Shown in pieces: positions 6,552 to 55,702 of a stretch of DNA of 64,000 nt. The translations under genes and the position numbers were made by a program. Source of the stretch: a phage; the NCBI GenBank assembly GCA_033286805.1, contig GCA_033286805.1_4727.1, one strand, 5' to 3'. The notes below the pieces were generated by a model. The model did no database searches, was not told where the DNA came from, and worked only from the letters and a program-made list of their open reading frames with translations. Numbering within the stretch: position 1 is the first letter of the stretch; every line of letters starts with the position of its first letter.

Positions 6552-7571
6552 TTACACCGCCACCTTAGCCTTGATAGCGGGGTGTGATTGATATCCGACG
6601 AACACAAAGTCTTCGTAACGGTAATCCGTAATACTTTCCGGTTTACGTACGATTGTTAGCTTCGGTAATGGGTACGGCTCACGGCTGAGCTGCTCTTTAA
6701 CCTGTTCGAAGTGGTTATGATAGATGTGGCAATCTCCACCCGTCCACACGAACTCACCAACGTCCATATTCAGCTGTTGGGCAAGCATATGCGTCAGCAA
6801 CGAATATGAGGCGATGTTGAACGGTGTTCCGAGCAACACGTCCTGTGATCTGGCTAACAGCATACAAGACAAGGCACGTGTTGGTACGTTATGCGCATTC
6901 AACCAAAGTTCCGTTTCACTATGTCGTACATCATCCGTAACCCACTGGGTTCTTAATACGTCGTTGCGTTGAACATAATCAACGCGTTCATCGACTGTGA
7001 GTTCGTGGGTATAGAACTGATAGAAACTGTGGCATGCTGGAAGCGCCATATCGTCTAAATCGCCTACGTTCCACGCGCTAACGATGATCCGTCGAGAATC
7101 AGGATCTTCTTTAAGCTGACGCATCACGTTTGCGATTTGGTCGTGGTGTTTAACATACAAGAGATGTTTGACCATACCGGCGTCAACAACACCGCAATAC
7201 TCATAGCCGCGTTGCATCAACTCACGAGTACGTTCTGTATCGTGCGGGACAACCATTTTGTAGTCGATCCATTCCCGCCATTGTTTGCCGTAAATAGGTC
7301 CTAGATTCCCTTCTTCGTCAGCCCACTCATTCCAGATGCGAACACCGTTATCCTGAAGATAAGCAACGTTTGTATCACCATTAAGAAACCAGAGCAGTTC
7401 GTGGATAACGCTCTTAAGGTGAATCTTCTTGGTGGTTACCAGCGGGAATCCTTTCTTCAAGTCAAAACGCATCTGACGTCCGAATACGGAACGGGTCCCG
7501 GTGCCTGTACGATCAGCTTTATCACGACCATTATCCATGATGTCTTGCAAAAGGTCCAAATACTGTTTCAT
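6552..7571 (-). CDS. thyA: thymidylate synthase (ThyA) with two internal insertions
   Basis: MKQYLDLLQ...DRTGTGT...FPLVTTKK...[20 protein letters not shown], catalytic-Cys region PACHSF all align to bacterial ThyA; GAGGA SD before ATG. Confidence 0.9.
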
Positions 7572-7771
7572 TTTAATCCTCTAAGTGTTTCAAGTAGTTC
7601 CTGAAATTTATAACGATATTTAGGATCGCTTAACGTGTAGCAGCAACCATGTAACACGTTATACGCGAAATCGGCTTGTAAACCACGAACCTTCGGATCC
7701 AATGATAGATTCAACGGCGCATCATCAAAAATCCACGCCTCAATGTTCTTCTTGGATTCCTTCGTTAACAT
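7568..7771 (-). CDS. hypothetical protein
   Basis: 67-aa ORF, 4-nt overlap with thyA start. Confidence 0.4.
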
Positions 7772-7902
7772 CGTTGTTCACCTCGTCGTAAAAGTAAATA
7801 GAGTTTTGTCGAGACGCCCTAATTACTTACAACGTCGGTTCTCCCGGCTTCAGAGAATTCTTAAAATCCGTTAGTTTTGATAGATAGGGTAAGACGGCAT
7901 AA

Positions 7903-7923
7903 AAGCCTCCCATTACGGGAGGC
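7903..7923 (-). terminator. GC-rich hairpin followed by TTTATGCCGTC motif
   Basis: AGCCTCCC-ATTAC-GGGAGGCT stem-loop just after stop of 7937-8485; recurrent motif family. Confidence 0.5.
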
Positions 7924-7936
7924 TCCATCAATCAAC

Positions 7937-8485
7937 TTACTTCACGAGAACAGCGAATTCGAGAACGTAAATAGTCTCGTCATCCATCGGATTTGTTGTG
8001 GTATAGCCAGCAAATTGATAGCCCATATCCACGATAAACTCGCTAAGTTTATCGATGACTGATACCCCGATACGATCGTCAACAGACAGACGACATTTAC
8101 GGGTTATGTTTTGCCCGCGAGGAACGCCAGCTAACACGGATAGGAAATGTACGATCCGGTTATTGGTTGCGAACTGCTTGAAATCGTCGTAGTGTTTAAG
8201 GTCTTTCATCGCAGACTCTACAGTCATCCGGCGACCAGGTGATACATACTCAGAATAAGAATAAGCTGCAATCGTGCGGCGGTCTTCAGTGAGGTAAGTG
8301 TTCCCATCAGGATGATAACTTTCGATTGTTCCGTCTTCATAGGCGACGGTCACAACAGGTGCGCCGTATTCGTCGCGACCGAAATCAACTTTACATTTGT
8401 CCGAAAGCGGTAGAATCGTACAAGGCTTTGCATTGTTCTCATCAGGGAGATCGTAACCACTCATCATTTTCAAGAACATAGACAT
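7937..8485 (-). CDS. hypothetical protein, tandem paralog A
   Basis: 182 aa; shares ENNAKPCTILP / FGRDEYG segments with 8572-9105. Confidence 0.55.
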   Translation of the reverse strand: MSMFLKMMSGYDLPDENNAKPCTILPLSDKCKVDFGRDEYGAPVVTVAYEDGTIESYHPDGNTYLTEDRRTIAAYSYSEYVSPGRRMTVESAMKDLKHYDDFKQFATNNRIVHFLSVLAGVPRGQNITRKCRLSVDDRIGVSVIDKLSEFIVDMGYQFAGYTTTNPMDDETIYVLEFAVLVK

Positions 8486-8537
8486 AATAGAACCTCATGA
8501 TAATAGATAATAGAAATGATAGATAGTACAGCAAAAT

Positions 8538-8561
8538 GAGGGGGTATTATCCCACCCCCTC
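8538..8561 (-). terminator. hairpin downstream of 8572-9105
   Basis: GAGGGGGT / ACCCCCTC stem then ATTTTGCTG on minus strand. Confidence 0.45.
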
Positions 8562-8571
8562 GCAGGGATTA

Positions 8572-9105
8572 CTACTTAACGATCGCGATGATTTTACCGC
8601 CCGCACCGGCGTAATATGCCGTTAAATTACCAGTAAACAACTCTTGTAAAAGACGATTTACGTGACTAACAAAGTTAGGATTGTCTGATTTTACAAACTC
8701 GATGTGACGCGTTTGTTTTATATCACGATCGATTAAGCGTATTTCCAACAACGCACGAATGAGGTTATCGTCAAGTTTACCACTTGCATCCAGCACTTCC
8801 CCATACGTCGTAGCACGGACGTCTGCATACATACGGTCAACATCATCCTTCCCAAAACCACAGGAATAGGCATACGTTGCGATGGTATTACCATTATCCA
8901 TCACGTAAACGTTACCGCCTGGGTAATCGATAAATCGTTGATCCTTATCACCATGAGCGACGAACTCCAGTGTCGGTCTACCTAGTGAATCACGATTGAA
9001 TTCGATAGTTGTCAAACGGTCAGGCACCACATGTAACGTAAACGGTTTTGCATTGTTACGATCGCTAGTATCGCAGTTGCCCATTACTTTTACGATAACA
9101 CTCAT
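8572..9105 (-). CDS. hypothetical protein, tandem paralog B
   Basis: 177 aa; DRNNAKPFTLHVVPD / FNRDSLGRPTLEF similar to neighbour. Confidence 0.55.
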   Translation of the reverse strand: MSVIVKVMGNCDTSDRNNAKPFTLHVVPDRLTTIEFNRDSLGRPTLEFVAHGDKDQRFIDYPGGNVYVMDNGNTIATYAYSCGFGKDDVDRMYADVRATTYGEVLDASGKLDDNLIRALLEIRLIDRDIKQTRHIEFVKSDNPNFVSHVNRLLQELFTGNLTAYYAGAGGKIIAIVK

Positions 9106-9179
9106 GTTTTATTCCTTAGTAGTCCTAGTAGTAGTATTGAGGAATTTCACCTCATTAGATAGTCTATTTTGGTAATGTT

Positions 9180-9512
9180 TTACTGAAACAAGACATTAAA
9201 TTCGACGAGATACCCATCGGATCTATCACCACGATATCTGTTGCAGAAAACACCGAATTTCATCAAAAACACACATAACTCTTCGGCTTTGTATAGCGGA
9301 ATACGATTTTCGTCGAGCAGGGGGCACTTATGGCTAACCCGCTCCGACGAATCAACACAACACAAATAAAGAAGGAACCGAACGATGGCTCGGTTCTTAG
9401 TGAAGCTCTCGAATTCACCTGCGGTTCTGAACTCATCGAGGAGCTTTGTCGTTTTCTTCAATCGTTCACGATCAAGCATGTTAACCTCAATACGAACATA
9501 ACCCTCCTCCAA
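9180..9512 (-). CDS. hypothetical protein (track start is TTG; ATG at 9479 more likely)
   Basis: 110-aa ORF; track start overlaps hairpin 9502-9533. Confidence 0.4.
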   Translation of the reverse strand: MEEGYVRIEVNMLDRERLKKTTKLLDEFRTAGEFESFTKNRAIVRFLLYLCCVDSSERVSHKCPLLDENRIPLYKAEELCVFLMKFGVFCNRYRGDRSDGYLVEFNVLFQ

Positions 9513-9533
9513 CCCGTCAGGGAAGGAGGAGGG
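9502..9533 (-). terminator. hairpin after 9543-9857
   Basis: CCCTCCTCC / GGAGGAGGG 9-bp stem. Confidence 0.4.
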
Positions 9534-9542
9534 GATATGCCG

Positions 9543-9857
9543 TTATTCTGTTTTCGGTGTTGAACCGTTCTTCTTGAAGTCGGATTCGTATTTCACGTTA
9601 GAATCGAGAACCTCACGAACGGTTTTATCCGTACAACCACGGGCGATGTATGCATTAAGATCGTCGCGTAATTTACGCATCGTTGTTTTATCCGCATCAG
9701 AAACATCTGACTTGGTAAGACGGAATGCGATTGCATCACGAATTTTATTCAGCGTTGCTGGGTTATTACGCTGCTCTGCAAATACCGCTTTGATGAATGT
9801 ACCGCTATCTTTCGAAGCGATGGCTGCATCAAGAATCTCAATATGCTTTTCAGACAT
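9543..9857 (-). CDS. hypothetical protein
   Basis: 104-aa ORF. Confidence 0.45.
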   Translation of the reverse strand: MSEKHIEILDAAIASKDSGTFIKAVFAEQRNNPATLNKIRDAIAFRLTKSDVSDADKTTMRKLRDDLNAYIARGCTDKTVREVLDSNVKYESDFKKNGSTPKTE

Positions 9858-9908: not shown

Positions 9909-11138
9909 TCACTTCGGAAGCTTAGACACCGCCATGCTTCGCGCCATCGCAACGTCATACGCATCCATGATTGCATCACCGATAGCGGTATGACGGATCA
10001 ACGGAATACCCATATCTGGATACTCTTTGGTGCCTAAGATGGATACCGGTTTGTCTTGATATGCGGCAATCATCGAACGAATATCCTGAACCTGGTTATA
10101 ACGGCAGATTGGTTTGAAGCCTGCCTTACGGAACCAATGTTCTAATTGAGGCCAATCTGTTTCACCACGAGCAAGATAATAGAAGGTATCCTTACCGTAG
10201 TAATCAGTAAGCACATCACGAATTGTGTTAACAAACACGTTTACTTCGGTGATGGCTTCTTTATAACCCACCACCTTACAATGTTGAAAACAATAGTCAC
10301 GCGCTTCCTTCGGTGCTTTGGTTTGCCACCATTCTACTGTTGATTCACTGATGCGACCACCGTCAGCGATTTGACCATGAATGTCAGGGAAGATATCTAT
10401 ACGCGGGCCGTTAATAACAGATTCTGGGTTAGCTAGATCGAAGAACACCATACCGATTTCCAGCAGTACCCCGTTCTTTTCCAGACTGAGATTCTCAACA
10501 TCCAGACAAAAAGCGGGCTTCTCTACCGTTGAAAAATCAAAGCGTCCCTCATATCGTGGTGCTAGCTTAGCACCAAGGAACGTCTCTTGGATGAACTGGG
10601 AGAATGTTATATTCTCTGCTACTAAATCAATACCCAATTTACTTAGCAAAGGTATAAGTTCACGGTAGTTCTGCTTAATTAGCAACATTACTTGGTCGTT
10701 GACACAACAACTAATTGAGTAAAAGATATAAAAGATATCTAACGGTTTGTATGGAGCCTCAAAAATATGTTCCTGGAACGATTGGGCCAGCGCTTTATGT
10801 GTTTCCTCACGATGATTCATCAGTCGGTAAATAGCGCAACGCAGATAATGTCGAAGTGTTATCTCGTGAAGATGCGACGTATCTTCTTGAAATAACGTCA
10901 TGAAACCGTGATACGTATAATACTCTCCTCTTTTAATTTCTTCGTGGAGTTCTTTGTTCCCCTTTATTTCTTCTGGTGTTATCGGGTCGATCTGATCATG
11001 GATAATGTTGAGTAGATCGTCGCTGTGTACCTTAAACAGTTTTTCAGCGTCAAGATTAGGTAATGTCGCAATTGCTGCGTACATTAATGTTTCTGCGGGA
11101 TTAAGTTCTTTATTGTCGATTGTGATGGTTAAAGCCAT
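9909..11138 (-). CDS. DEDDh-type 3'-5' exonuclease domain protein with unknown N-terminal domain
   Basis: C-terminal half has Exo I LDVEN and Exo III HTAIGDAIMDAYD (H-x-A-x-x-D-A) motifs; ATG at 11138 with GAGGT SD (track start 11162 is TTG). Confidence 0.55.
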   Translation of the reverse strand: MALTITIDNKELNPAETLMYAAIATLPNLDAEKLFKVHSDDLLNIIHDQIDPITPEEIKGNKELHEEIKRGEYYTYHGFMTLFQEDTSHLHEITLRHYLRCAIYRLMNHREETHKALAQSFQEHIFEAPYKPLDIFYIFYSISCCVNDQVMLLIKQNYRELIPLLSKLGIDLVAENITFSQFIQETFLGAKLAPRYEGRFDFSTVEKPAFCLDVENLSLEKNGVLLEIGMVFFDLANPESVINGPRIDIFPDIHGQIADGGRISESTVEWWQTKAPKEARDYCFQHCKVVGYKEAITEVNVFVNTIRDVLTDYYGKDTFYYLARGETDWPQLEHWFRKAGFKPICRYNQVQDIRSMIAAYQDKPVSILGTKEYPDMGIPLIRHTAIGDAIMDAYDVAMARSMAVSKLPK

Positions 11139-11163
11139 TTTATTATACCTCATCGAAATCAAA

Positions 11164-15837: not shown

Positions 15838-15875
15838 CTTTATCTCCTTAACGGTTGCTGGTAACGCGGCATAAA

Positions 15876-15893
15876 CCCTCCCCGAAGGGAGGG
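15876..15893 (-). terminator. GC-rich hairpin followed by TTTATGCCGCG motif
   Basis: CCCTCCC-CGAA-GGGAGGG immediately after stop of 15904-16461. Confidence 0.5.
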
Positions 15894-15903
15894 TGATTAA
15901 CGA

Positions 15904-27639: not shown

Positions 27640-28125
27640 TTATCCAGCTTTCTGTTGTAAAGCGTATGGATCCATAGCGTCAGACATATCCGCAAAAACG
27701 GTGAGAATAAACCCCTTTATCTGTCTCACCTCGGTTACACGAAGCCCTTTATCATTGCGATATACGTTTTCTTCACCGACCAACTTTGGTCGAATAACAT
27801 AAACTCCATCAACAAGCGGGAATGTCGGATACGGATAAATACCGATACGAATGATGTTTGGGTGATCGCCTAGAAGGTCACGTCCAAACTTATCGACTCG
27901 ACCATAAATCGCCCCATCCACACCTTCCACTTCAATGAGATCGTTTCGAATATCCTGAAATAGCTGCTCTAACGTGTCGGCGGGGTACGTATATGCGACA
28001 CCTAACGCTGGATCCTCAATGGTTTTGACACTGAATCCGTTAAGCCAAACAATCTGTTCATCCGCCCATGTTTCTTCATATACCGTTAATCCATCGCCGT
28101 ATATGTTGGCGTGTGCTATCTCCAT
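27640..28125 (-). CDS. hypothetical protein
   Basis: 161-aa ORF. Confidence 0.45.
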   Translation of the reverse strand: MEIAHANIYGDGLTVYEETWADEQIVWLNGFSVKTIEDPALGVAYTYPADTLEQLFQDIRNDLIEVEGVDGAIYGRVDKFGRDLLGDHPNIIRIGIYPYPTFPLVDGVYVIRPKLVGEENVYRNDKGLRVTEVRQIKGFILTVFADMSDAMDPYALQQKAG

Positions 28126-28239
28126 AATCTCATTTCCTCTTATACGTTAGGATAGATGACATGTTGGATATACGTTGCCTTTGCATATATTGCTTTATTT
28201 CCGTCAGAAATAACGGAAAATAAAAACAACGACATAATT

Positions 28240-28269
28240 CCCTCCCACCTCCACATGGGAGAGGGAGGG
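28240..28269 (-). terminator. hairpin after 28283-28645
   Basis: CCCTCCC...GGGAGGG imperfect stem followed by T-rich tract on minus strand. Confidence 0.45.
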
Positions 28270-28282
28270 TTATTCGTGTTTA

Positions 28283-28645
28283 TTATTCTACGCTGTCTTC
28301 TTCCGTATCTTCCTCTTCGGAACCATCGAATGTTTTCATTGTGACGGTGGTATCCCAGTTAGCCGCGTAATCAGCCATCGCTTCACGCAGCGCTTCTTCA
28401 CCAGCATCACCAGCCAGGTCAAGTACAACCAAACCCTGTGCGACGTTTTGAGCAACGGTATCAATAACGGTTGCATCTTCTTCAAAACTACGTACGGGTT
28501 CAATGGTACCTACATCAACAGCGTAGTTCGTGGTTGCTGTAAACACGGCGACTTGTAGCGCATTGCTATCTTCATCATGCAGTGCTGCTTCAATACCGAT
28601 CGGACGAGCCAGTTCTTGTAGTGTTAATTTGCGAATTAAGTTCAT
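28283..28645 (-). CDS. hypothetical acidic protein
   Basis: 120-aa ORF, acidic C-terminus. Confidence 0.45.
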   Translation of the reverse strand: MNLIRKLTLQELARPIGIEAALHDEDSNALQVAVFTATTNYAVDVGTIEPVRSFEEDATVIDTVAQNVAQGLVVLDLAGDAGEEALREAMADYAANWDTTVTMKTFDGSEEEDTEEDSVE

Positions 28646-28677
28646 TATGTTTTCCTCAGGTGAATGTTAGCAATCGT

Positions 28678-29103
28678 TTAAAACTTTAAAACTTTTTCGA
28701 TACGATGGTTGACGAGTTCATTGAACGACTCTTCAGCTTGTTCGATGATTTCATCAACGTCGATATCTAATTGTTGGGGTTGGATAACATGCTCTTTCAT
28801 GGTTTCCAGCCAGTATTCGGCTTTAATCATGACGTTAGCGACGTGTTCGACCTGGCTGCGTATGTCGACGATCTGGCAGTCAGGATTGTTAATATCGATG
28901 ATGTGTCCGTGGTGGTTGATAAAACCTAGCTTATTTGATGCCCTTACCGCATCGCGGGTAAGTTCTTGCAAGATTAAATTATTAACGTAGTTCACTGCTA
29001 CGGAACGATTTTCGTTATCACTCATACCAGGGATCCTCTTTAAGTCATCACATTCTAGTGTTAAGCAGTTAAAATAAACCGTTCCTTTTATCAGCATAAA
29101 CAT
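28678..29103 (-). CDS. hypothetical protein
   Basis: 141-aa ORF. Confidence 0.45.
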   Translation of the reverse strand: MFMLIKGTVYFNCLTLECDDLKRIPGMSDNENRSVAVNYVNNLILQELTRDAVRASNKLGFINHHGHIIDINNPDCQIVDIRSQVEHVANVMIKAEYWLETMKEHVIQPQQLDIDVDEIIEQAEESFNELVNHRIEKVLKF

Positions 29104-29132
29104 CCTCCTCCCACCACATGGGTAGGAGGAGG
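29104..29132 (-). terminator. hairpin followed by TTTATGCTG variant
   Basis: CCTCCTCC / GGAGGAGG stem after stop of 29144-29554. Confidence 0.45.
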
Positions 29133-29143
29133 CGTAATATGCA

Positions 29144-29554
29144 TCAGAAAGGAGGACGATCTTTAAATTCTAGCAACGTGTCTTCGAAGCAAGCGATGAG
29201 TTCAGACTGCAATTCGGTACGGCCTTGTTCACCGAAGAGTTCCAGCAACATTAACCCCCGAGCGGTCTTCGTAGCAACCTCTTCGCAGATGCGGAGATCG
29301 CGAACTTCATCATCGCCGACATCTTTACGTAACTGCGCTGCAATGGGCTTAAGATTACCGTTTTCATCGTGTTCGTCACGAAATGCATCATAAGCCGCAT
29401 CGATGTTCGCGATCCGTGTCAACCCTTCAGAATCCCGCCAGTCTCGATATAATCCAAGCAGACGGTTATGATTCTTCGTTTTGACGTTCGGTGCTGGAAG
29501 GTTGCGCAACAGATGTGGTGTAATCATTGCTATCACGCTATCCGAATGATCCAT
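29144..29554 (-). CDS. hypothetical protein
   Basis: 136-aa ORF. Confidence 0.45.
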   Translation of the reverse strand: MDHSDSVIAMITPHLLRNLPAPNVKTKNHNRLLGLYRDWRDSEGLTRIANIDAAYDAFRDEHDENGNLKPIAAQLRKDVGDDEVRDLRICEEVATKTARGLMLLELFGEQGRTELQSELIACFEDTLLEFKDRPPF

Positions 29555-32184: not shown

Positions 32185-33465
32185 TCAGAAACGATTCACA
32201 GTACGTCCTGTCCACGCGCTCAGGATGTTGTTACGTTCCATCTCAGCACGACGACGTAAACCGTTTGGCGACTGCGGTGCTTGCGGCATCCCCCATCCAG
32301 CCGGTTGCATACCCATGCCCGGCCAAGCAGCGTTATTGAACATCGTACCGTTACGTTCCGCAACACGGTTCATCAGCGCATCAAACGTGCTATTACCTGC
32401 CGGTTGGTTACCGCCGCTTTCCCACTGATTAGGTTGGACAGGTGCGGTTTTACCTAACAGGTTATCGATCACACTGCCTGTTGAAGCAGGACGCGGTTGC
32501 ATACCTTCATGTGCAGCTGCTGATGGATTTGGCTTAACCGTCGGCTGCGGACGACTGTTCAGCGTTACACCCATGTTGTATTTCGCTGGCGGAATCTGAC
32601 CACGATGTTGATTGATCGGTTCAAAATCCTCAACCCAGGTAACATCACAATAACCGTTCTCTTTACCGTCGTACTTATCACCAAACAGTTTGATGAGATT
32701 GTTCAGCGGTTCCATCAGCTTAGCGAAGCTGTGGATAAGACAATCGAAATACGGAGCATGAGGATCGCTTGACCCAGCGTTGTACGTTTCGCTTACTTCA
32801 CCCGCGTGCGGGATAACGTACTCAACCAGGTTTCTCAGCATGTTAAGATCTTTCTTGGAAATCTCAACACCACACCAGTACGTTTTCTTATCTTTCGTGC
32901 TGATATGTTCTTCTTCCATGAACGGGAAAGTAACGACCGCAACACGGGTCATCTTCTTACCCATGTAGGTTGCACCAGTACGACGAAGATAAATTTTAGA
33001 CAACGTATACGGTGTGTCACGTTTCAACCAAACGGTGACCAGTTTACCTAACGTCGTTAGCGTTTTATCGCTGGCGTCCGCAAGGATGTTGAAGAACTCT
33101 TTTTGCTTCGGTCCGAAACGTTTTGCTTCTTTAGGGTTGATTGCGGTTTCAACCATCCAAATCAACATGGAGCACAGCGTGGCATTAAAACGAACAACCA
33201 TCGCACGACGCAGGAATTGAAGGACTTCCGATTCGCCGTTCATCACGTCTTCACTTAGCGGATGGAACAGCACACGTTCAGCCAGCTGATTTCCGGTACG
33301 GACTTCGGAAACCGGCATAAGCAACGGCATGCTTTCCACGGTAGCGGCAACTGCAACAACTTTACCATCCCCATCCGTAAAACGATATTCTAATTCGTGG
33401 GCGTCATTCTCAAAATAGTTAACGCTCTGTAGTGCTTTGCGATAAGCTTCGATAAGCTTCGACAT
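32185..33465 (-). CDS. hypothetical protein with low-complexity G/P/Q-rich C-terminus
   Basis: 426-aa ORF. Confidence 0.5.
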   Translation of the reverse strand: MSKLIEAYRKALQSVNYFENDAHELEYRFTDGDGKVVAVAATVESMPLLMPVSEVRTGNQLAERVLFHPLSEDVMNGESEVLQFLRRAMVVRFNATLCSMLIWMVETAINPKEAKRFGPKQKEFFNILADASDKTLTTLGKLVTVWLKRDTPYTLSKIYLRRTGATYMGKKMTRVAVVTFPFMEEEHISTKDKKTYWCGVEISKKDLNMLRNLVEYVIPHAGEVSETYNAGSSDPHAPYFDCLIHSFAKLMEPLNNLIKLFGDKYDGKENGYCDVTWVEDFEPINQHRGQIPPAKYNMGVTLNSRPQPTVKPNPSAAAHEGMQPRPASTGSVIDNLLGKTAPVQPNQWESGGNQPAGNSTFDALMNRVAERNGTMFNNAAWPGMGMQPAGWGMPQAPQSPNGLRRRAEMERNNILSAWTGRTVNRF

Positions 33466-33520
33466 ATTGTATTTCCTTTTCTTTACGTCAACGGTCCCCC
33501 TACAACAGGGGACCTATGGA

Positions 33521-40904: not shown

Positions 40905-41444
40905 TTAAGCGTAATTCATTCCAACCAATCTATCGTAGTTAGGCATATGCCCTAACTCCAGTTCGACGGGCATGGATACATTGGTGCGTGGCGCGTAAAA
41001 TGTTCGCGTATGCATATCGATATACCCACAGTCCAAATAAACAATATCGGACAACTCCGCTGGATGTTTAGGTGCGGGAATCTTTAAGCGATTGTAACAC
41101 TCAAGCTGCCACCAGGCATGAAAAAAGTTATTGTAGGCGTACGATTTACTGTTGGCAACTTTAAGTCCGTAGATCACCCATAACGCCGCCATGAAGTTGG
41201 TCGCGTTAATTCGCATCGGTTGTTCATTATTGAGCATGTGCGTGTAGGTAAACAACGGTGTGTTACCATCACCGAAACGTCCGACTAAGGTATTGTTCGT
41301 GTGTTCGACCTCAAAGGAAAAATGCTGGCTGCTATTGCCATCAAAATGGATCATTCCGTTCTCCTCAAGCTTTTTCATTTCATAGAGTGGTGGAAATTCG
41401 TAGAAAGTTACAAAAATAAAAAAGAATGGGCAGCCCCTCCCCAC
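40905..41444 (-). CDS. hypothetical protein
   Basis: 179-aa ORF. Confidence 0.45.
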   Translation of the reverse strand: MGRGCPFFFIFVTFYEFPPLYEMKKLEENGMIHFDGNSSQHFSFEVEHTNNTLVGRFGDGNTPLFTYTHMLNNEQPMRINATNFMAALWVIYGLKVANSKSYAYNNFFHAWWQLECYNRLKIPAPKHPAELSDIVYLDCGYIDMHTRTFYAPRTNVSMPVELELGHMPNYDRLVGMNYA

Positions 41445-41460
41445 CCGAAGGTAGGGAGAG
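41436..41460 (-). terminator. hairpin after 41474-41938
   Basis: CCTCCC...GGGAGAG stem followed by T-rich run on minus strand. Confidence 0.45.
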
Positions 41461-41473
41461 ACCGCAAATATAC

Positions 41474-42057: not shown

Positions 42058-42855
42058 TTAACGTGTTCTCCTATCACGATGCGTATACGACTGAAGACCG
42101 ATGTCCATATGCGGTAACGTCAGCGTCTGCCAGATCTGTCGTGCGTAGCGATCGAGCGTATGATCATCAGTAACACAATCGACGGGTTCGATGAGGTGAG
42201 TCGTATACTGGCTTTTCTCAGAGAAAGGTTCGATGTTAGCTGTATCTCCTAATCCGCTTTTCACCGTGAAGACAAGACGTGTGACTATCATCGCCTTATG
42301 TTGCTGTTCGTTATAACGAAGGCTGCGGTATACGGCATAGCTTCCTCCTTTTAGGCTTCGGGTATAACGAAGGTCGGAGGTCGTCTCGGAAATCTGATAC
42401 AGCATCCAGTCCAACGTATCACGCCAGTACGCATCATCCACATCAGGAACCGTGATACCGTATCGCGTAGGCAGCAGTTCTAAAAGCAATTTATAAAGTC
42501 CGCGACGCAGACCATGCTCTTCTGTTTCCGATAAACCGTTTCCAACGTAACGTGAAATACGCGTACGTAAATACGTACGGATGAACATATTCGCCATCAG
42601 TGTTTTCACTCTGCTACTTGTATCCTCAAAGCGATCAACGCTGAAACTCGTTTCAATCAGCCGTCCATTAAAATACAATGCGGCAACATACATCGCGTTA
42701 TTGCTATCACGTTCAATGTTTAAACGACCGCAGATATTGGCTGCGTCGTTCATGGTAAATTCTAATTTATCGTGTTCGATACGATAGATAATATCCTCTT
42801 GGGTTGCCAGGCTCGCAATGCGACGGTAGCCCGGAGAAGTACGTTTTACACTCAT
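42058..42855 (-). CDS. hypothetical protein
   Basis: Start set to ATG 42855 (MSVKRT) with GAGGA SD; track start 42894 is the ATG inside the TTTATGCCG motif. Confidence 0.5.
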   Translation of the reverse strand: MSVKRTSPGYRRIASLATQEDIIYRIEHDKLEFTMNDAANICGRLNIERDSNNAMYVAALYFNGRLIETSFSVDRFEDTSSRVKTLMANMFIRTYLRTRISRYVGNGLSETEEHGLRRGLYKLLLELLPTRYGITVPDVDDAYWRDTLDWMLYQISETTSDLRYTRSLKGGSYAVYRSLRYNEQQHKAMIVTRLVFTVKSGLGDTANIEPFSEKSQYTTHLIEPVDCVTDDHTLDRYARQIWQTLTLPHMDIGLQSYTHRDRRTR

Positions 42856-42897
42856 GATTGTCCTCGTTTTCAATTTTAAGATTGCATGCGGCATAAA

Positions 42898-42922
42898 CCC
42901 TCCCCGCCTTATGCAGGGAGGG
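42898..42922 (-). terminator. GC-rich hairpin followed by TTTATGCCGC motif
   Basis: CCCTCCC / GGGAGGG stem after stop of 42938-43576. Confidence 0.5.
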
Positions 42923-42937
42923 TAGCCATTAAATGGA

Positions 42938-43576
42938 TTAACCTAATTTACCACCGGCGATGTTGGTGAAATCTTCGCCATCAGGAACTTGCAGTAGGAT
43001 ACGTGCCATGTCCCAGTTGGTTAATGTAATTGCTTTATCATCGATACTCAGTTCTGGTAGGTCGAGTTCATGATCATCAAACTCGTAGGAAATACTCCAC
43101 GTTTCGTCTGTTTTAGGATCGGTTATCAACACACCGTCTGTTACACGCATGTAGTCCGGATGCAATTCATTACTGAATGTGCTGAACGGATCGGTGTAAC
43201 ACTCAGCATACCCCTCGATCTGCTGACGCTGTGCCTTCGTACGTAATTCAGGGCACGCCATGATCAGTTGTCGAGATATGCCGTTTGCAGCACGGAAGTC
43301 TTCCACGGTGTTACATGGCATAACCACATCGTCATGGAAGATGTTCTCCGATTGTCTCAGCAAAGTCTTACGGAGTTCAGCATAGTTTATCTGATTGAAT
43401 GCATCGAACGTTGCTAACGATTCAGCGTAAAAATGCTTTACGTGTTCGCTCGCGCCGCCGAGGCTATTCATCAACTTGTGTCCATACTCCATGAAGCTTT
43501 TATCGAGACCGGAGGACATTTCTCCGAACCTCAGTGCACGATAACTGTCTCGTCCACCTGTAAATATTTGCGCCAT
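42938..43576 (-). CDS. hypothetical protein
   Basis: 212-aa ORF. Confidence 0.5.
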   Translation of the reverse strand: MAQIFTGGRDSYRALRFGEMSSGLDKSFMEYGHKLMNSLGGASEHVKHFYAESLATFDAFNQINYAELRKTLLRQSENIFHDDVVMPCNTVEDFRAANGISRQLIMACPELRTKAQRQQIEGYAECYTDPFSTFSNELHPDYMRVTDGVLITDPKTDETWSISYEFDDHELDLPELSIDDKAITLTNWDMARILLQVPDGEDFTNIAGGKLG

Positions 43577-44191: not shown

Positions 44192-44541
44192 CACGTATCT
44201 TCAGTATGGTTCGCTACTCCATACCCGCAGCATTACCTGCAGCTCCTGGTGTTACCAGGACGGAGAGATCATCTCATCACCCACGAAGGGTGTTCCGCGC
44301 TACCCTCAGCGAATTCGAGGGACATGATCGTTGAACCTTCCACCGATAATCGGCGGCTAGGCTGCTGATTGAACATTGTACGTTGGGGTGGCATCCTGGT
44401 GCAGGACTGTCGTTGAAGCCTCCCAACATCCACTCACTTATTTCCGCCTTATCGGCTCCCACAAGGGCAGAGTGGCTTTAGCCCGTCTCAGCAATTCACG
44501 GAATTCAAGCTCTTCCTTTCGGAAGGCAGGGCCTCATTTGA
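44192..44541 (-). ncRNA. intervening sequence 1 (putative self-splicing intron, group I-like)
   Basis: 350 nt between ...GYNA codon (ends in U) and DFDGD codons; ends in G; multiple hairpins conserved by covariation with IVS2. Confidence 0.45.
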
Positions 44542-45792
44542 AGCGTTGTATCCCTTAAGGATCATCACGCTTAACCCGATGGTGTTATCCTGCGGATCGC
44601 GTTTAACCTTGGTGATTTCAAGACATTGGTTACTGCTTCGGTCAAGTGATGGGTTTCGAACAAAGCCGCACACAATCCCATCGAACGGTGTATCAGCAAT
44701 AAGCTCATCGTGCAGCTCGCTCATCATCGGATGATAATTACGGACATGTTCCGCAACGAACGCACGTGCCGCTCTTGGCGAATAACCACGATGGAATAAC
44801 TTGGATTGGATATGTTCTTTATTGGTTAAAGTAAATGGTGCGTATGGGAAATGCAGATGATAATAACGATGGTTCGCTGTTATCGAACTGATTACAGTAC
44901 GCGTGGTGAATGGATGTAATGTACCTAATATGTTTTTACGTGTGATACCTTTCTTCTTACCGATGAACTCATCGAAAATTGCTGCGTGGTATTGCAGTAG
45001 CTTCAGTTGTACTTTCGCCATCCAGTTTTCTTTCTTTCTGGCGCTCAAAGGTGTTGTTGGGTGATAGATACTATTCAACGTACCGATAGCATCGATCGCA
45101 CCTTCCATTTTGCTATCTGCATAACGACCGGTCGGCGTATTTTCGATAACGAACATCATGGCCGCAGGAAAGCTGATATACTGACTGAAGAACTTATCAC
45201 GATGGATACGGATGAATTCTCGTAGCGTGTCAACTTTCTCCGTGTTCTTCGGTCCACGTAACGTGGGTCCTTTATACAAGATCTCCATGATACGATCGAA
45301 GTTCTGTATAAAGCTATTTACGCCACGTCGTATCCCGAATGCATCAAATTGCTGCTCTAGATAGTTCTTGAGTTCAATGGGTCGTTTTACATTTGGACGG
45401 TAACTGGCATCAATGAGCCACGTCATCGTTTCAAAGCTTTTGATATTCAACTCGCTTGCCAGCACGAGATGGACCAACGGGTTAATGAACGCATCGATTC
45501 CTTCAGGGACACGCGCCCAGACCGTCGAACGAATCTCTTGTTCTGCTGGGTAGGTTACAACCGTTTTACAGTTTGGACACACCGTGCCGAGTAGCTCACC
45601 ACGATTGTAGAAACCACAACCACATTGTGGTGTGATATCCAACGTATCGCTGGAGTAAACACGGGTGATAAAACTGTTTAATTTCTTCTTCTCTTCGACG
45701 ACTTTTGTATCGTAATCATTCAACAAAATCGGCGTAAAAGGAAGTTCTGCGAGCTGTCTATCGAAACTCACGATATCGAGCATGATGGCCAT
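44542..45792 (-). CDS. RNA polymerase beta-prime N-terminal fragment, exon 1
   Basis: Zinc-binding CGCGFYNRGELLGTVCPNCKTVV (cf. [23 protein letters not shown]), GKKKGITRKNILG...TRTVISS (cf. [23 protein letters not shown]), ends ...VMILKGYNA; AGGAG SD. Confidence 0.65.
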
Positions 45793-45834
45793 GGGGTATC
45801 TCCTACAAATGAAAAAGAACGTTAGGACGTATAA

Positions 45835-45858
45835 GGGAGGGAGGTTGCCCTCCCTCCC
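45835..45858 (-). terminator. hairpin after 45885-47780
   Basis: GGGAGGGAGG-TTGC-CCTCCCTCCC 10-bp stem. Confidence 0.5.
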
Positions 45859-45884
45859 GTCAGATTACATCGAACGTTCTTCCA

Positions 45885-55127: not shown

Positions 55128-55448
55128 TCATTTTCTCCCTCTTCGAATACCACCGATACCTCTTTCGTCTAAGACGTCCCAAGCACGCTTTATTTCATCC
55201 TCCGTTGCTCTGGTATCTGGAGGGACAACCATAACACAGTCGTGGAATGGCCAATGTGTAGGTCTGGGGTTAGCGAACAAATCATCCCATTCAAATGTCC
55301 ATTCTTTCTTTGAGCGATTGTAGTAGAGCGTAAGGTACGTGTTGGTATACGCCGGATAACCGCGCATAACTTCAATATCCTTACGATCTTGCCGTTCCTG
55401 ATTCCAATCGTTAAACCGCTTTCTTATTTTCTCCCACCACTTTCCCAT
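55128..55448 (-). CDS. hypothetical protein
   Basis: 106-aa ORF; AGGAG SD; TTTATGCCGTC motif 20 nt upstream. Confidence 0.5.
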   Translation of the reverse strand: MGKWWEKIRKRFNDWNQERQDRKDIEVMRGYPAYTNTYLTLYYNRSKKEWTFEWDDLFANPRPTHWPFHDCVMVVPPDTRATEDEIKRAWDVLDERGIGGIRRGRK

Positions 55449-55470
55449 GCTTTCTCCTAGACGGCATAAA

Positions 55471-55492
55471 AGCCTGCCCCGAAGGACAGGCT
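55471..55492 (-). terminator. hairpin followed by TTTATGCCGTC motif
   Basis: AGCCTGCCC-CGAA-GGACAGGCT stem after stop of 55502-55702. Confidence 0.5.
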
Positions 55493-55501
55493 CGATAGAA
55501 C

Positions 55502-55702
55502 TTAACGACCATCCAATTTCAATGAAGGATGGTTGACGATATGTGCGTGTTTTGCTGGGTCATATAGCTGATATGGAAAATAGCCATGCCATTGACGGCC
55601 TTGGCATTTCGTACACAGGAACTGACCAACACCTTGTCGATTCTCGTAAGCGAGTTCGGTACTATCAACATGTCCGCAACGTTCGCAGATAAACAGCGAC
55701 AT
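55502..55702 (-). CDS. small zinc-ribbon protein
   Basis: CERCGH...CTKCQG, 66 aa. Confidence 0.45.
   Translation of the reverse strand: MSLFICERCGHVDSTELAYENRQGVGQFLCTKCQGRQWHGYFPYQLYDPAKHAHIVNHPSLKLDGR

Follow-up and report, generated by a model that had tools for sequence, protein, structure and literature searches.

Internal protein (IP) loci of the T4 type are hyperplastic arrays of genes for head-packaged anti-restriction proteins, which have an N-terminal targeting sequence in common. Nucleus-forming jumbo phages are thought to depend for protection mainly on their protein shell, which directs interest to the cytoplasmic proteins that act early, before the shell is in place. The present study concerns an array of three small minus-strand genes, p99, p177 and p182, in a 64,000-nucleotide stretch of phage DNA (contig GCA_033286805.1_4727.1; the whole stretch is hereafter the window). 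Bases 7700-9600 of the window are 95% identical in nucleotide sequence, over 1.9 kb, to positions 132781-134684 of Escherichia phage vB_EcoM_Goslar, a 237-kb jumbo phage described as a nucleus-forming member of the Chimalliviridae (bioRxiv 10.1101/2023.09.20.558163; bioRxiv 10.64898/2026.04.21.720040). Goslar gp143 and gp144 (Goslar_00143, Goslar_00144) are the direct orthologs of p182 and p177; gene order and the two annotated terminators also agree. The Goslar record lists both proteins as hypothetical and does not mention their paralogy. In the literature no paper discussing gp143, gp144, the related gp34 of Pseudomonas phage 201phi2-1 or the domain family described below was found; the genes are mentioned in supplementary tables alone. 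The genes and domains of the array are as follows.

7937-8485, minus strand: p182 gene, 182 amino acids (aa); ortholog of Goslar gp143 (Goslar_00143), 95% amino-acid identity; AlphaFold2 (AF2) predicted local distance difference test (pLDDT) 91.5
8246-8485, minus strand: N-terminal beta domain (A, the N-domain) of p182, residues ~1-80
7940-8239, minus strand: alpha/beta C-terminal domain (C-domain) of p182, residues ~83-182, as modelled by AF2
8572-9105, minus strand: p177 gene, 177 aa; ortholog of Goslar gp144
8857-9105, minus strand: A domain of p177, residues ~1-83
8575-8856, minus strand: C-terminal domain of p177; predicted topology as in the p182 C-domain, without sequence similarity to it
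9180-9479, minus strand: p99 gene, 99 aa; likely start ATG at 9479, with GAGG before it; C-domain-only paralog of the p182 C-domain

The first-pass annotation had taken the two open reading frames (ORFs) at 7937-9105 for diverged tandem paralogs because of common N-terminal blocks. The coordinates are correct, both ORFs lie on the minus strand, and the blocks are present (DENNAKPCTILPLSDKCKVDFGRDEYGAPVVTV in p182, DRNNAKPFTLHVVPDRLTTIEFNRDSLGRPTLEF in p177). Pairwise alignment revealed significant similarity: by BLASTP, residues 1-78 of p182 match residues 1-81 of p177 with 28 identities in 81 positions (35%; E 2e-13). When all 724 stop-to-stop ORFs of the window were searched with phmmer, the two proteins matched at E ~2e-11, while no further ORF went below E ~1. 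A profile of the N-domain detects exactly two copies in the 64-kb window, scoring 85 bits in p182 and 66 bits in p177. At the DNA level, the sole remnant of the duplication is a 21-nucleotide (nt) direct repeat, whose copies at 8417-8437 and 9037-9057 are 86% identical and separated by 620 nt.

The C-terminal halves of p177 and p182 have no detectable sequence similarity (hhalign probability ~0). Comparisons of the p177 C-domain with those of p182, p99 and p200, an additional copy present in some relatives, likewise gave no signal with hhalign, and the p182 and p200 C-domains gave only P 0.057. AF2 models were built on family alignments (pLDDT 91.5 for p182, 86.9 for p177). Both models have one topology, in which seven beta strands (residues ~3-78) are followed by the order H-H-H-E-H-E-E (H, helix; E, strand). 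In Foldseek, the p177 model matched the BFVD model of Goslar gp143 over 188 columns (template modelling score, TM, 0.62/0.60; E 6e-12), and the p182 model reaches an equal TM against the same gp143 model. Because the model topology is the same and the match to the gp143 model is full length, p177 and p182 are, as modelled, two-domain paralogs over their full length, with C-domains that have diverged beyond sequence recognition. Homology of the p177 and p182 C-domains is thus argued from predicted structure; the p200 C-domain is a candidate member. A TusA/SirA-like fold for the C-domain was considered and rejected, as a significant structural match together with a conserved Cys-Pro-x-Pro motif was not found. 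The tandem paralogy first noticed in the N-terminal blocks is therefore confirmed by pairwise alignment and predicted fold, and it extends to a third, C-domain-only paralog in the window and to a fourth gene in relatives.

The third member, p99, lies within a 110-aa ORF (9180-9512, minus strand) that matches the p182 C-domain (phmmer E 4e-6; hhalign probability 93.9%, E 1.6e-7). BLASTP of p182 against this ORF returned nothing, a negative result that is overridden by the phmmer and hhalign matches. The listed start of the ORF, a TTG at 9512, is inside the terminator hairpin of the upstream gene. Since that hairpin is strong and a GAGG precedes the ATG at 9479, this ATG is the likely true start and gives a product of 99 aa. 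Gene callers also place this 99-aa gene in a related contig (L006/L007). The Goslar record does not contain p99; in its place a plus-strand ORF is given, Goslar_00145 (HOV27_gp145; window 9180-9563, Goslar locus L001 7483-7860), which overlaps it. Differences in the minus-strand frame of p99 fall mostly at third codon positions (6 of 7 against Goslar, 14 of 18 against L010 and 16 of 23 against L006) and most are synonymous. Read in the plus-strand ORF that overlaps p99, these changes are nearly all non-synonymous (0:4, 0:6 and 2:6 synonymous to non-synonymous). As the substitutions are synonymous or at third positions in the p99 frame and non-coding-like in the plus-strand frame, p99 is, by its substitution pattern, a real gene, and Goslar_00145 is probably a wrong-strand mis-annotation in the reference genome of Goslar. 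The idea that p99 and the C-domain of p182 recently exchanged a cassette was rejected: the protein identity is only ~24% and there is no DNA repeat. The order of the array in the window is thus p99 (C-domain only), p177, terminator, p182 and second terminator.

The distribution among related phages, to which the first-pass annotation had also pointed, is restricted and uneven in copy number. Only Goslar-like contigs of ~240 kb, which come from metagenomes and from assemblies of E. coli, Salmonella and Shigella, were found to carry full-length homologs, in 1 to 3 copies. The array occupies the same position in related phages, between the capsid-latch gene (the gp146 ortholog) and thyA. At this syntenic site one full-length copy, two with p99, three, or three with p99 are present, as exemplified by the following contigs.

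Window and Goslar: p99, p177, p182
L024: one copy, P0182, with a p182-like C-domain
L008: p201, p179 and p182, without p99
L006 and L010: p99, a p200-type copy (199-200 aa), a p177-type copy (179-181 aa) and p182

In a crude neighbour-joining tree of N-domains all the Goslar-type copies cluster together, and an expansion of the array within the Goslar-like lineage is suggested. All copies are under purifying selection, with ratios of non-synonymous (dN) to synonymous (dS) substitution rates (omega) of 0.08-0.24 (0.08-0.22 for p182, 0.10-0.19 for p177). By domain, omega is 0.02-0.10 for the N-domains of p177 and p182, 0.12-0.17 for that of p200, and 0.11-0.41 for the C-domains. The architecture is that of an acidic all-beta N-domain of ~80 residues under strong purifying selection and an alpha/beta C-domain of ~100 residues that evolves faster. 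Between p177 and its counterparts in L006 and L008, dS is ~2 and C-domain dN 0.5-0.6, compared with a dS of 0.1-0.5 in neighbouring genes. The divergence of p177 suggests either that divergent alleles have persisted for a long time or that recombination has replaced them.

An exhaustive HMMER search of 1.84 billion representatives puts the N-domain family at no fewer than 568 clusters: 568 representatives reach E<=1e-3, of which 347 reach E<=1e-10. The domain begins within residues 1-6 in 146 of the 150 best matches, and at residue 2-3 in p177 and p182. Roughly two in three matches stand alone, at 73-125 aa; the others carry C-terminal extensions of up to ~400 residues. Clustering of 48 such fusion tails gave 35 sequence clusters, none of which has a Pfam domain. 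Three metagenomic fusions (P0183, P0198 and P0206) have a distinct C-terminal motif in common (...F.PDGGI.F....GTNLFD..QAEAM.RH...), and this tail would constitute a small family of its own joined to the N-domain. The domain is acidic (median pI 4.8, net charge -4), which makes a DNA-binding role unlikely, and its conserved positions include K6, M8, D15, K20, F22, R38, G64, N65, Y67, T74 and A76 (p177 numbering). The family is absent from Pfam, NCBIfam and the Protein Data Bank (PDB).

Profile matches were obtained in PHROGs to two entries, both annotated as 'unknown function': phrog_10337 (~99 aa; E 2.8e-7 for p177, 0.0026 for p182) and phrog_10807 (~379 aa, RAY gp198 type; E 7.7e-6 for p177, 0.0068 for p182). 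RAY gp198, Proteus phage 10 QMP24040 and 201phi2-1 gp34 have the N-domain in common with p177 and p182, but their C-terminal domains are unrelated in sequence to the Goslar-type C-domain. The latter was seen in Goslar-like phages only, plus one further protein (P0237) whose resemblance was judged by eye. With tblastn the N-domain was found in jumbo phages of Erwinia (RAY group), Pseudomonas (201phi2-1 gp34, Viktualia), Salmonella (SA002) and Proteus (phage 10), and also in phiCbK-like Caulobacter phages and 45-kb Acinetobacter phages of Obolenskvirus. At the sensitivity of tblastn no N-domain gene was found in PhiKZ. When 185,579 representative genomes of bacteria and archaea were scanned for a sequence pattern, no relative could be confirmed; elsewhere the scan gave 7 viral loci and none that was confirmed in metagenome contigs, and these are weak negatives of a pattern-based search.

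Expression of the orthologs could be read from published Goslar data. When the nuclear shell protein ChmA was knocked down, the transcripts of gp143 and gp144 at 30 min changed by a log2 fold change of ~+0.1 relative to the control (RNA-seq; bioRxiv 10.1101/2023.09.20.558163, Supplementary Table 2). In the same experiment capsid, portal and tail genes changed by -4 to -7 log2, as checked for the major capsid protein (MCP) gp41, the portal gp36 and the tail spike gp13 (bioRxiv 10.1101/2023.09.20.558163). Genes that are unaffected by the knock-down match the early programme, transcribed before the nucleus forms (bioRxiv 10.1101/2023.09.20.558163). Since their transcripts are unchanged, gp143 and gp144 belong to the early, nucleus-independent expression class.

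Paralogy, array layout, domain organisation, selection, family distribution and early expression class are established; a function is inferred here, tentatively and with a little less than even confidence. According to this proposal, proteins of the p177/p182 type would be produced in the cytoplasm of the host as infection begins and act as dispensable accessory factors. The partner bound by the N-domain would be a conserved one, whether a macromolecule of the host or a small ligand, and the variable C-domain would modulate specificity or add to it. Under host pressure, the set would then adapt to different hosts by duplication, loss and allelic replacement, for example in defence evasion or host takeover. 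A host-interaction or anti-defence role had been put forward in the first-pass annotation. It gains circumstantial support from the early class, the varying copy number, the fast C-domains with deep allelic divergence and the lack of any confirmed bacterial relative in the one pattern-based scan of representative genomes.

Several observations weigh against this proposal. No match to a known anti-defence, defence, toxin or regulator family was found in Pfam, NCBIfam, PADLOC or the PDB: PADLOC and curated NCBIfam/Pfam profiles gave no match above threshold for p177 or p182, and a search of window proteins, 47 fusion proteins and 123 stand-alone members with Pfam, PHROGs, NCBIfam and PADLOC yielded no informative family and no recurrent weak match. 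Selection is purifying, with no sign of positive selection in any copy. The genes are not exceptionally expressed, since gp143 and gp144 have ~1.7 reads per nt against 1.1-1.4 for their neighbours (1.3-1.5 fold; computed from the published RNA-seq). Moreover, mass spectrometry of purified Goslar virions detected low levels of gp143 (3 peptides, an estimated ~4.5-10.8 copies) and gp144 (2 peptides, an estimated ~1.1-2.6 copies) (bioRxiv 10.64898/2026.04.21.720040, Table S4). The same preparation contained PhuZ and chimallin at >80 estimated copies (bioRxiv 10.64898/2026.04.21.720040, Table S4). Carry-over of gp143 and gp144 is plausible because these two non-virion proteins are so abundant there.

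The position of stand-alone homologs also has to be considered, as a phage-internal or virion role would explain it no less well. In one contig (L014) the homolog has a MuF-like gene on one side and, downstream, the scaffold and major head genes on the other, an arrangement seen in this one contig that is not general. In Acinetobacter phage WCHABP12 it comes after the genes for terminase, portal and head protein, and in two contigs (L005, L015) it is a few kb upstream of the terminase gene. Stand-alone genes are in or near the head and packaging module in 4 of 6 contexts in small phages or contigs of <120 kb (L005, L012, L014, L015). In a metagenomic chimallivirus an N-domain gene is near the chimallin and phage DNA polymerase genes. 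No conserved neighbour family emerged, the genes immediately upstream of the stand-alone homologs in five contigs being mutually unrelated. These neighbourhoods hint weakly at a head-related role; the evidence is weak because structural modules fill about half of a 45-kb genome.

One alternative, which we regard as unlikely, is that the proteins are packaged in the virion and ejected, the N-domain serving to bring a variable C-terminal cargo into the head, in the manner of T4 internal proteins. The virion peptides can be read in this way, and so can a conserved N-terminus combined with hypervariable C-termini, as well as the MuF, scaffold and head genes beside the homologs of L014 and WCHABP12. 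The array itself abuts gp146, the capsid 'latch' protein, present at 55 copies in the cryo-EM (cryo-electron microscopy) model of Goslar (bioRxiv 10.64898/2026.04.21.720040, Table S4). The expression class argues otherwise, as gp143 and gp144 are early and nucleus-independent, unlike the late gp41, gp36 and gp13. The gp146 transcript is an exception, being likewise unchanged by ChmA knock-down, unlike other capsid genes. The few copies in virions may be carry-over, 201phi2-1 gp34 is not among the mass-spectrometry virion proteins in its GenBank record, and most family members are bare 80-aa domains that carry no cargo.

A phage-internal role is given a similarly low probability; here the N-domain would bind a component of the phage, for example one that helps to assemble the head or to regulate early genes, and the paralogs would have been sub-functionalised. 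It would account for the strong conservation of the N-domain across phages of very different hosts, for the location of homologs in head and packaging modules and for the chimallivirus gene near chimallin and DNA polymerase. A dedicated phage partner is harder to reconcile with the lack of a conserved neighbouring gene family and with PhiKZ, where tblastn did not find the gene. The variation from 1 to 3 copies within one phage genus suggests that copies are dispensable, and co-location with structural modules that make up half of a small genome means little.

It is also conceivable, with no greater probability, that the N-domain is an undescribed phage module that functions only when its N-terminus is free, seen so far in phage contigs only, which would serve as a docking or delivery handle for more than 30 unrelated C-terminal effectors (a 'polymorphic effector' system). 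The Goslar-type array, including p99, would then be a locally expanding set of effectors deployed within minutes of the start of infection, ahead of the nucleus. A resemblance to polymorphic toxins was not found: p177, p182 and the 47 fusions contain no Pfam toxin domain, and no conserved neighbour gene is present that could confer immunity.

Rather improbable is the idea that the N-domain is by itself a small-ligand binder, sponge or mini-enzyme, for example one that sequesters an immune signalling nucleotide, with the C-terminal additions being secondary. Its dominant form is a stand-alone acidic protein of ~80 aa, it is expressed early in Goslar, and polar residues (K6, D15, K20, R38, N65, Y67 and T74) are conserved across hundreds of diverse phages; against this, no similarity in sequence or fold to known sponges or to any solved structure was found. 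Fusion to more than 30 unrelated tails would be unusual for the known sponge proteins. Finally, chance similarity or the decay of non-functional duplicates, in favour of which there is nothing except the lack of any annotation, is excluded by the alignment at E 2e-13 and the common predicted fold, by dN/dS of 0.08-0.24 in all copies and by the transcripts and peptides detected in Goslar.

Early, dispensable accessory proteins thus remain the tentatively preferred reading, and the transcriptional layout of the array and its surroundings is described below.

7899-7924, minus strand: predicted terminator after p182 (stem 7904-7924, then a U-tract); fold -20.5 kcal/mol, z -4.2; annotated in Goslar
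8486-8530, minus strand: leader upstream of p182, conserved between phages; it includes GTACTATCTATCATTTCTATTATCTATTATC and, as ribosome-binding site, GAGG
8531-8561, minus strand: predicted terminator after p177 (stem 8538-8561, then AUUUUG), from a terminator scan; fold -18.0 kcal/mol, z -2.2; annotated in Goslar
9106-9179, minus strand: spacer between p99 and p177; weak hairpin only, fold -6 kcal/mol, z -1.2
9495-9533, minus strand: strong predicted terminator hairpin after the gp146 ortholog, an inverted repeat that bounds the array on its upstream side; fold -30.7 kcal/mol, z -5.3
9543-9857, minus strand: gp146 ortholog (Goslar capsid 'latch'), 104 aa, directly upstream of the array
6552-7571: thyA, intact in the window

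That p177 and p182 are each followed by a terminator hairpin of their own, as noticed at first sight, is borne out by RNA folding, the U-tracts and the Goslar annotation. Both hairpins are predicted intrinsic (rho-independent) terminators, in which a GC-rich stem and then a U-tract follow the stop codon directly; that of p177 is invariant across five phages. GC-rich hairpins are common across the window and are therefore a property of the genome, not a peculiarity of p177 and p182. Hairpins of the CCCTCC...GGAGGG type followed by T-runs occur in many intergenic regions (examples are near 15838-15903, 28000-29150, 32185-33520, 40905-41470, 42058-42940, 44488-45880 and 55128-55520), and intrinsic terminators appear to punctuate the mostly minus-strand gene block every few genes.

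Because there is no convincing terminator between p99 and p177, these two genes are probably co-transcribed, and the units would be p99 with p177, and p182. In relatives with the extra p200 gene, alignment (L006/L008/L010) places a full hairpin at the position homologous to the p99-p177 spacer. The 86-nt leader upstream of p182 has a mean column identity of 94% across five phages whose coding regions differ at dS 0.16-0.38, and it is conserved above nearby synonymous sites. Its AT-rich 31-mer (GTACTATCTATCATTTCTATTATCTATTATC) has a single occurrence in the window. The leader probably holds the promoter and 5' untranslated region of the p182 unit, and the promoter may be one for a phage RNA polymerase. 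No promoter motif common to p99, p177 and p182, or to 44 intergenic regions, was evident by eye.

Other genes near the array also vary between relatives. A DUF7448 gene (287-294 aa) is located between the array and thyA in L006 (5281-6165), L008 (5281-6144) and L024 (5664-6527), and is absent from the window and from Goslar. Since this gene is present or absent between relatives, the array-thyA interval shows a sign of being a hotspot of gene gain and loss. In L010 (2652-4778) the thymidylate synthase gene is split into pieces of 249 and 99 aa by a GIY-YIG/NUMOD3 homing-endonuclease gene, and the presence of an intron or mobile insertion is suggested. A 417-aa protein (window 9909-11162, minus strand) has an Rv2179c-like 3'-5' exoribonuclease domain. 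Its C-terminal nuclease half is conserved in the L008 counterpart (1463-2776), the N-terminal ~200 residues of which are wholly different; the pair would represent a further domain replacement between close relatives.

The analysis defines a domain family and corrects a probable wrong-strand gene in the Goslar reference. The array is expressed early, varies between close relatives and is built on a widespread, unstudied N-terminal domain. It thereby offers a tractable candidate set of three small genes, in a phage in which dCas13d knock-down already works.

Late expression together with abundance in virions, as in T4, is not seen here; transcription is early, and an estimated ~1-11 copies per virion is a very low abundance. 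The N-terminal part of p177 and p182 also differs from its T4 equivalent, being a folded 80-aa domain whose first strand is formed by the N-terminus in the models, in contrast to the ~10-aa cleaved peptide of T4. The likeness to T4 IP loci lies in the variable tandem array, the conserved N-terminal part joined to diverse C-terminal parts and the trace detection in virions. The locus belongs to a type of phage that had been sequenced before, and in kind it is one of the variable accessory paralog arrays of phages.

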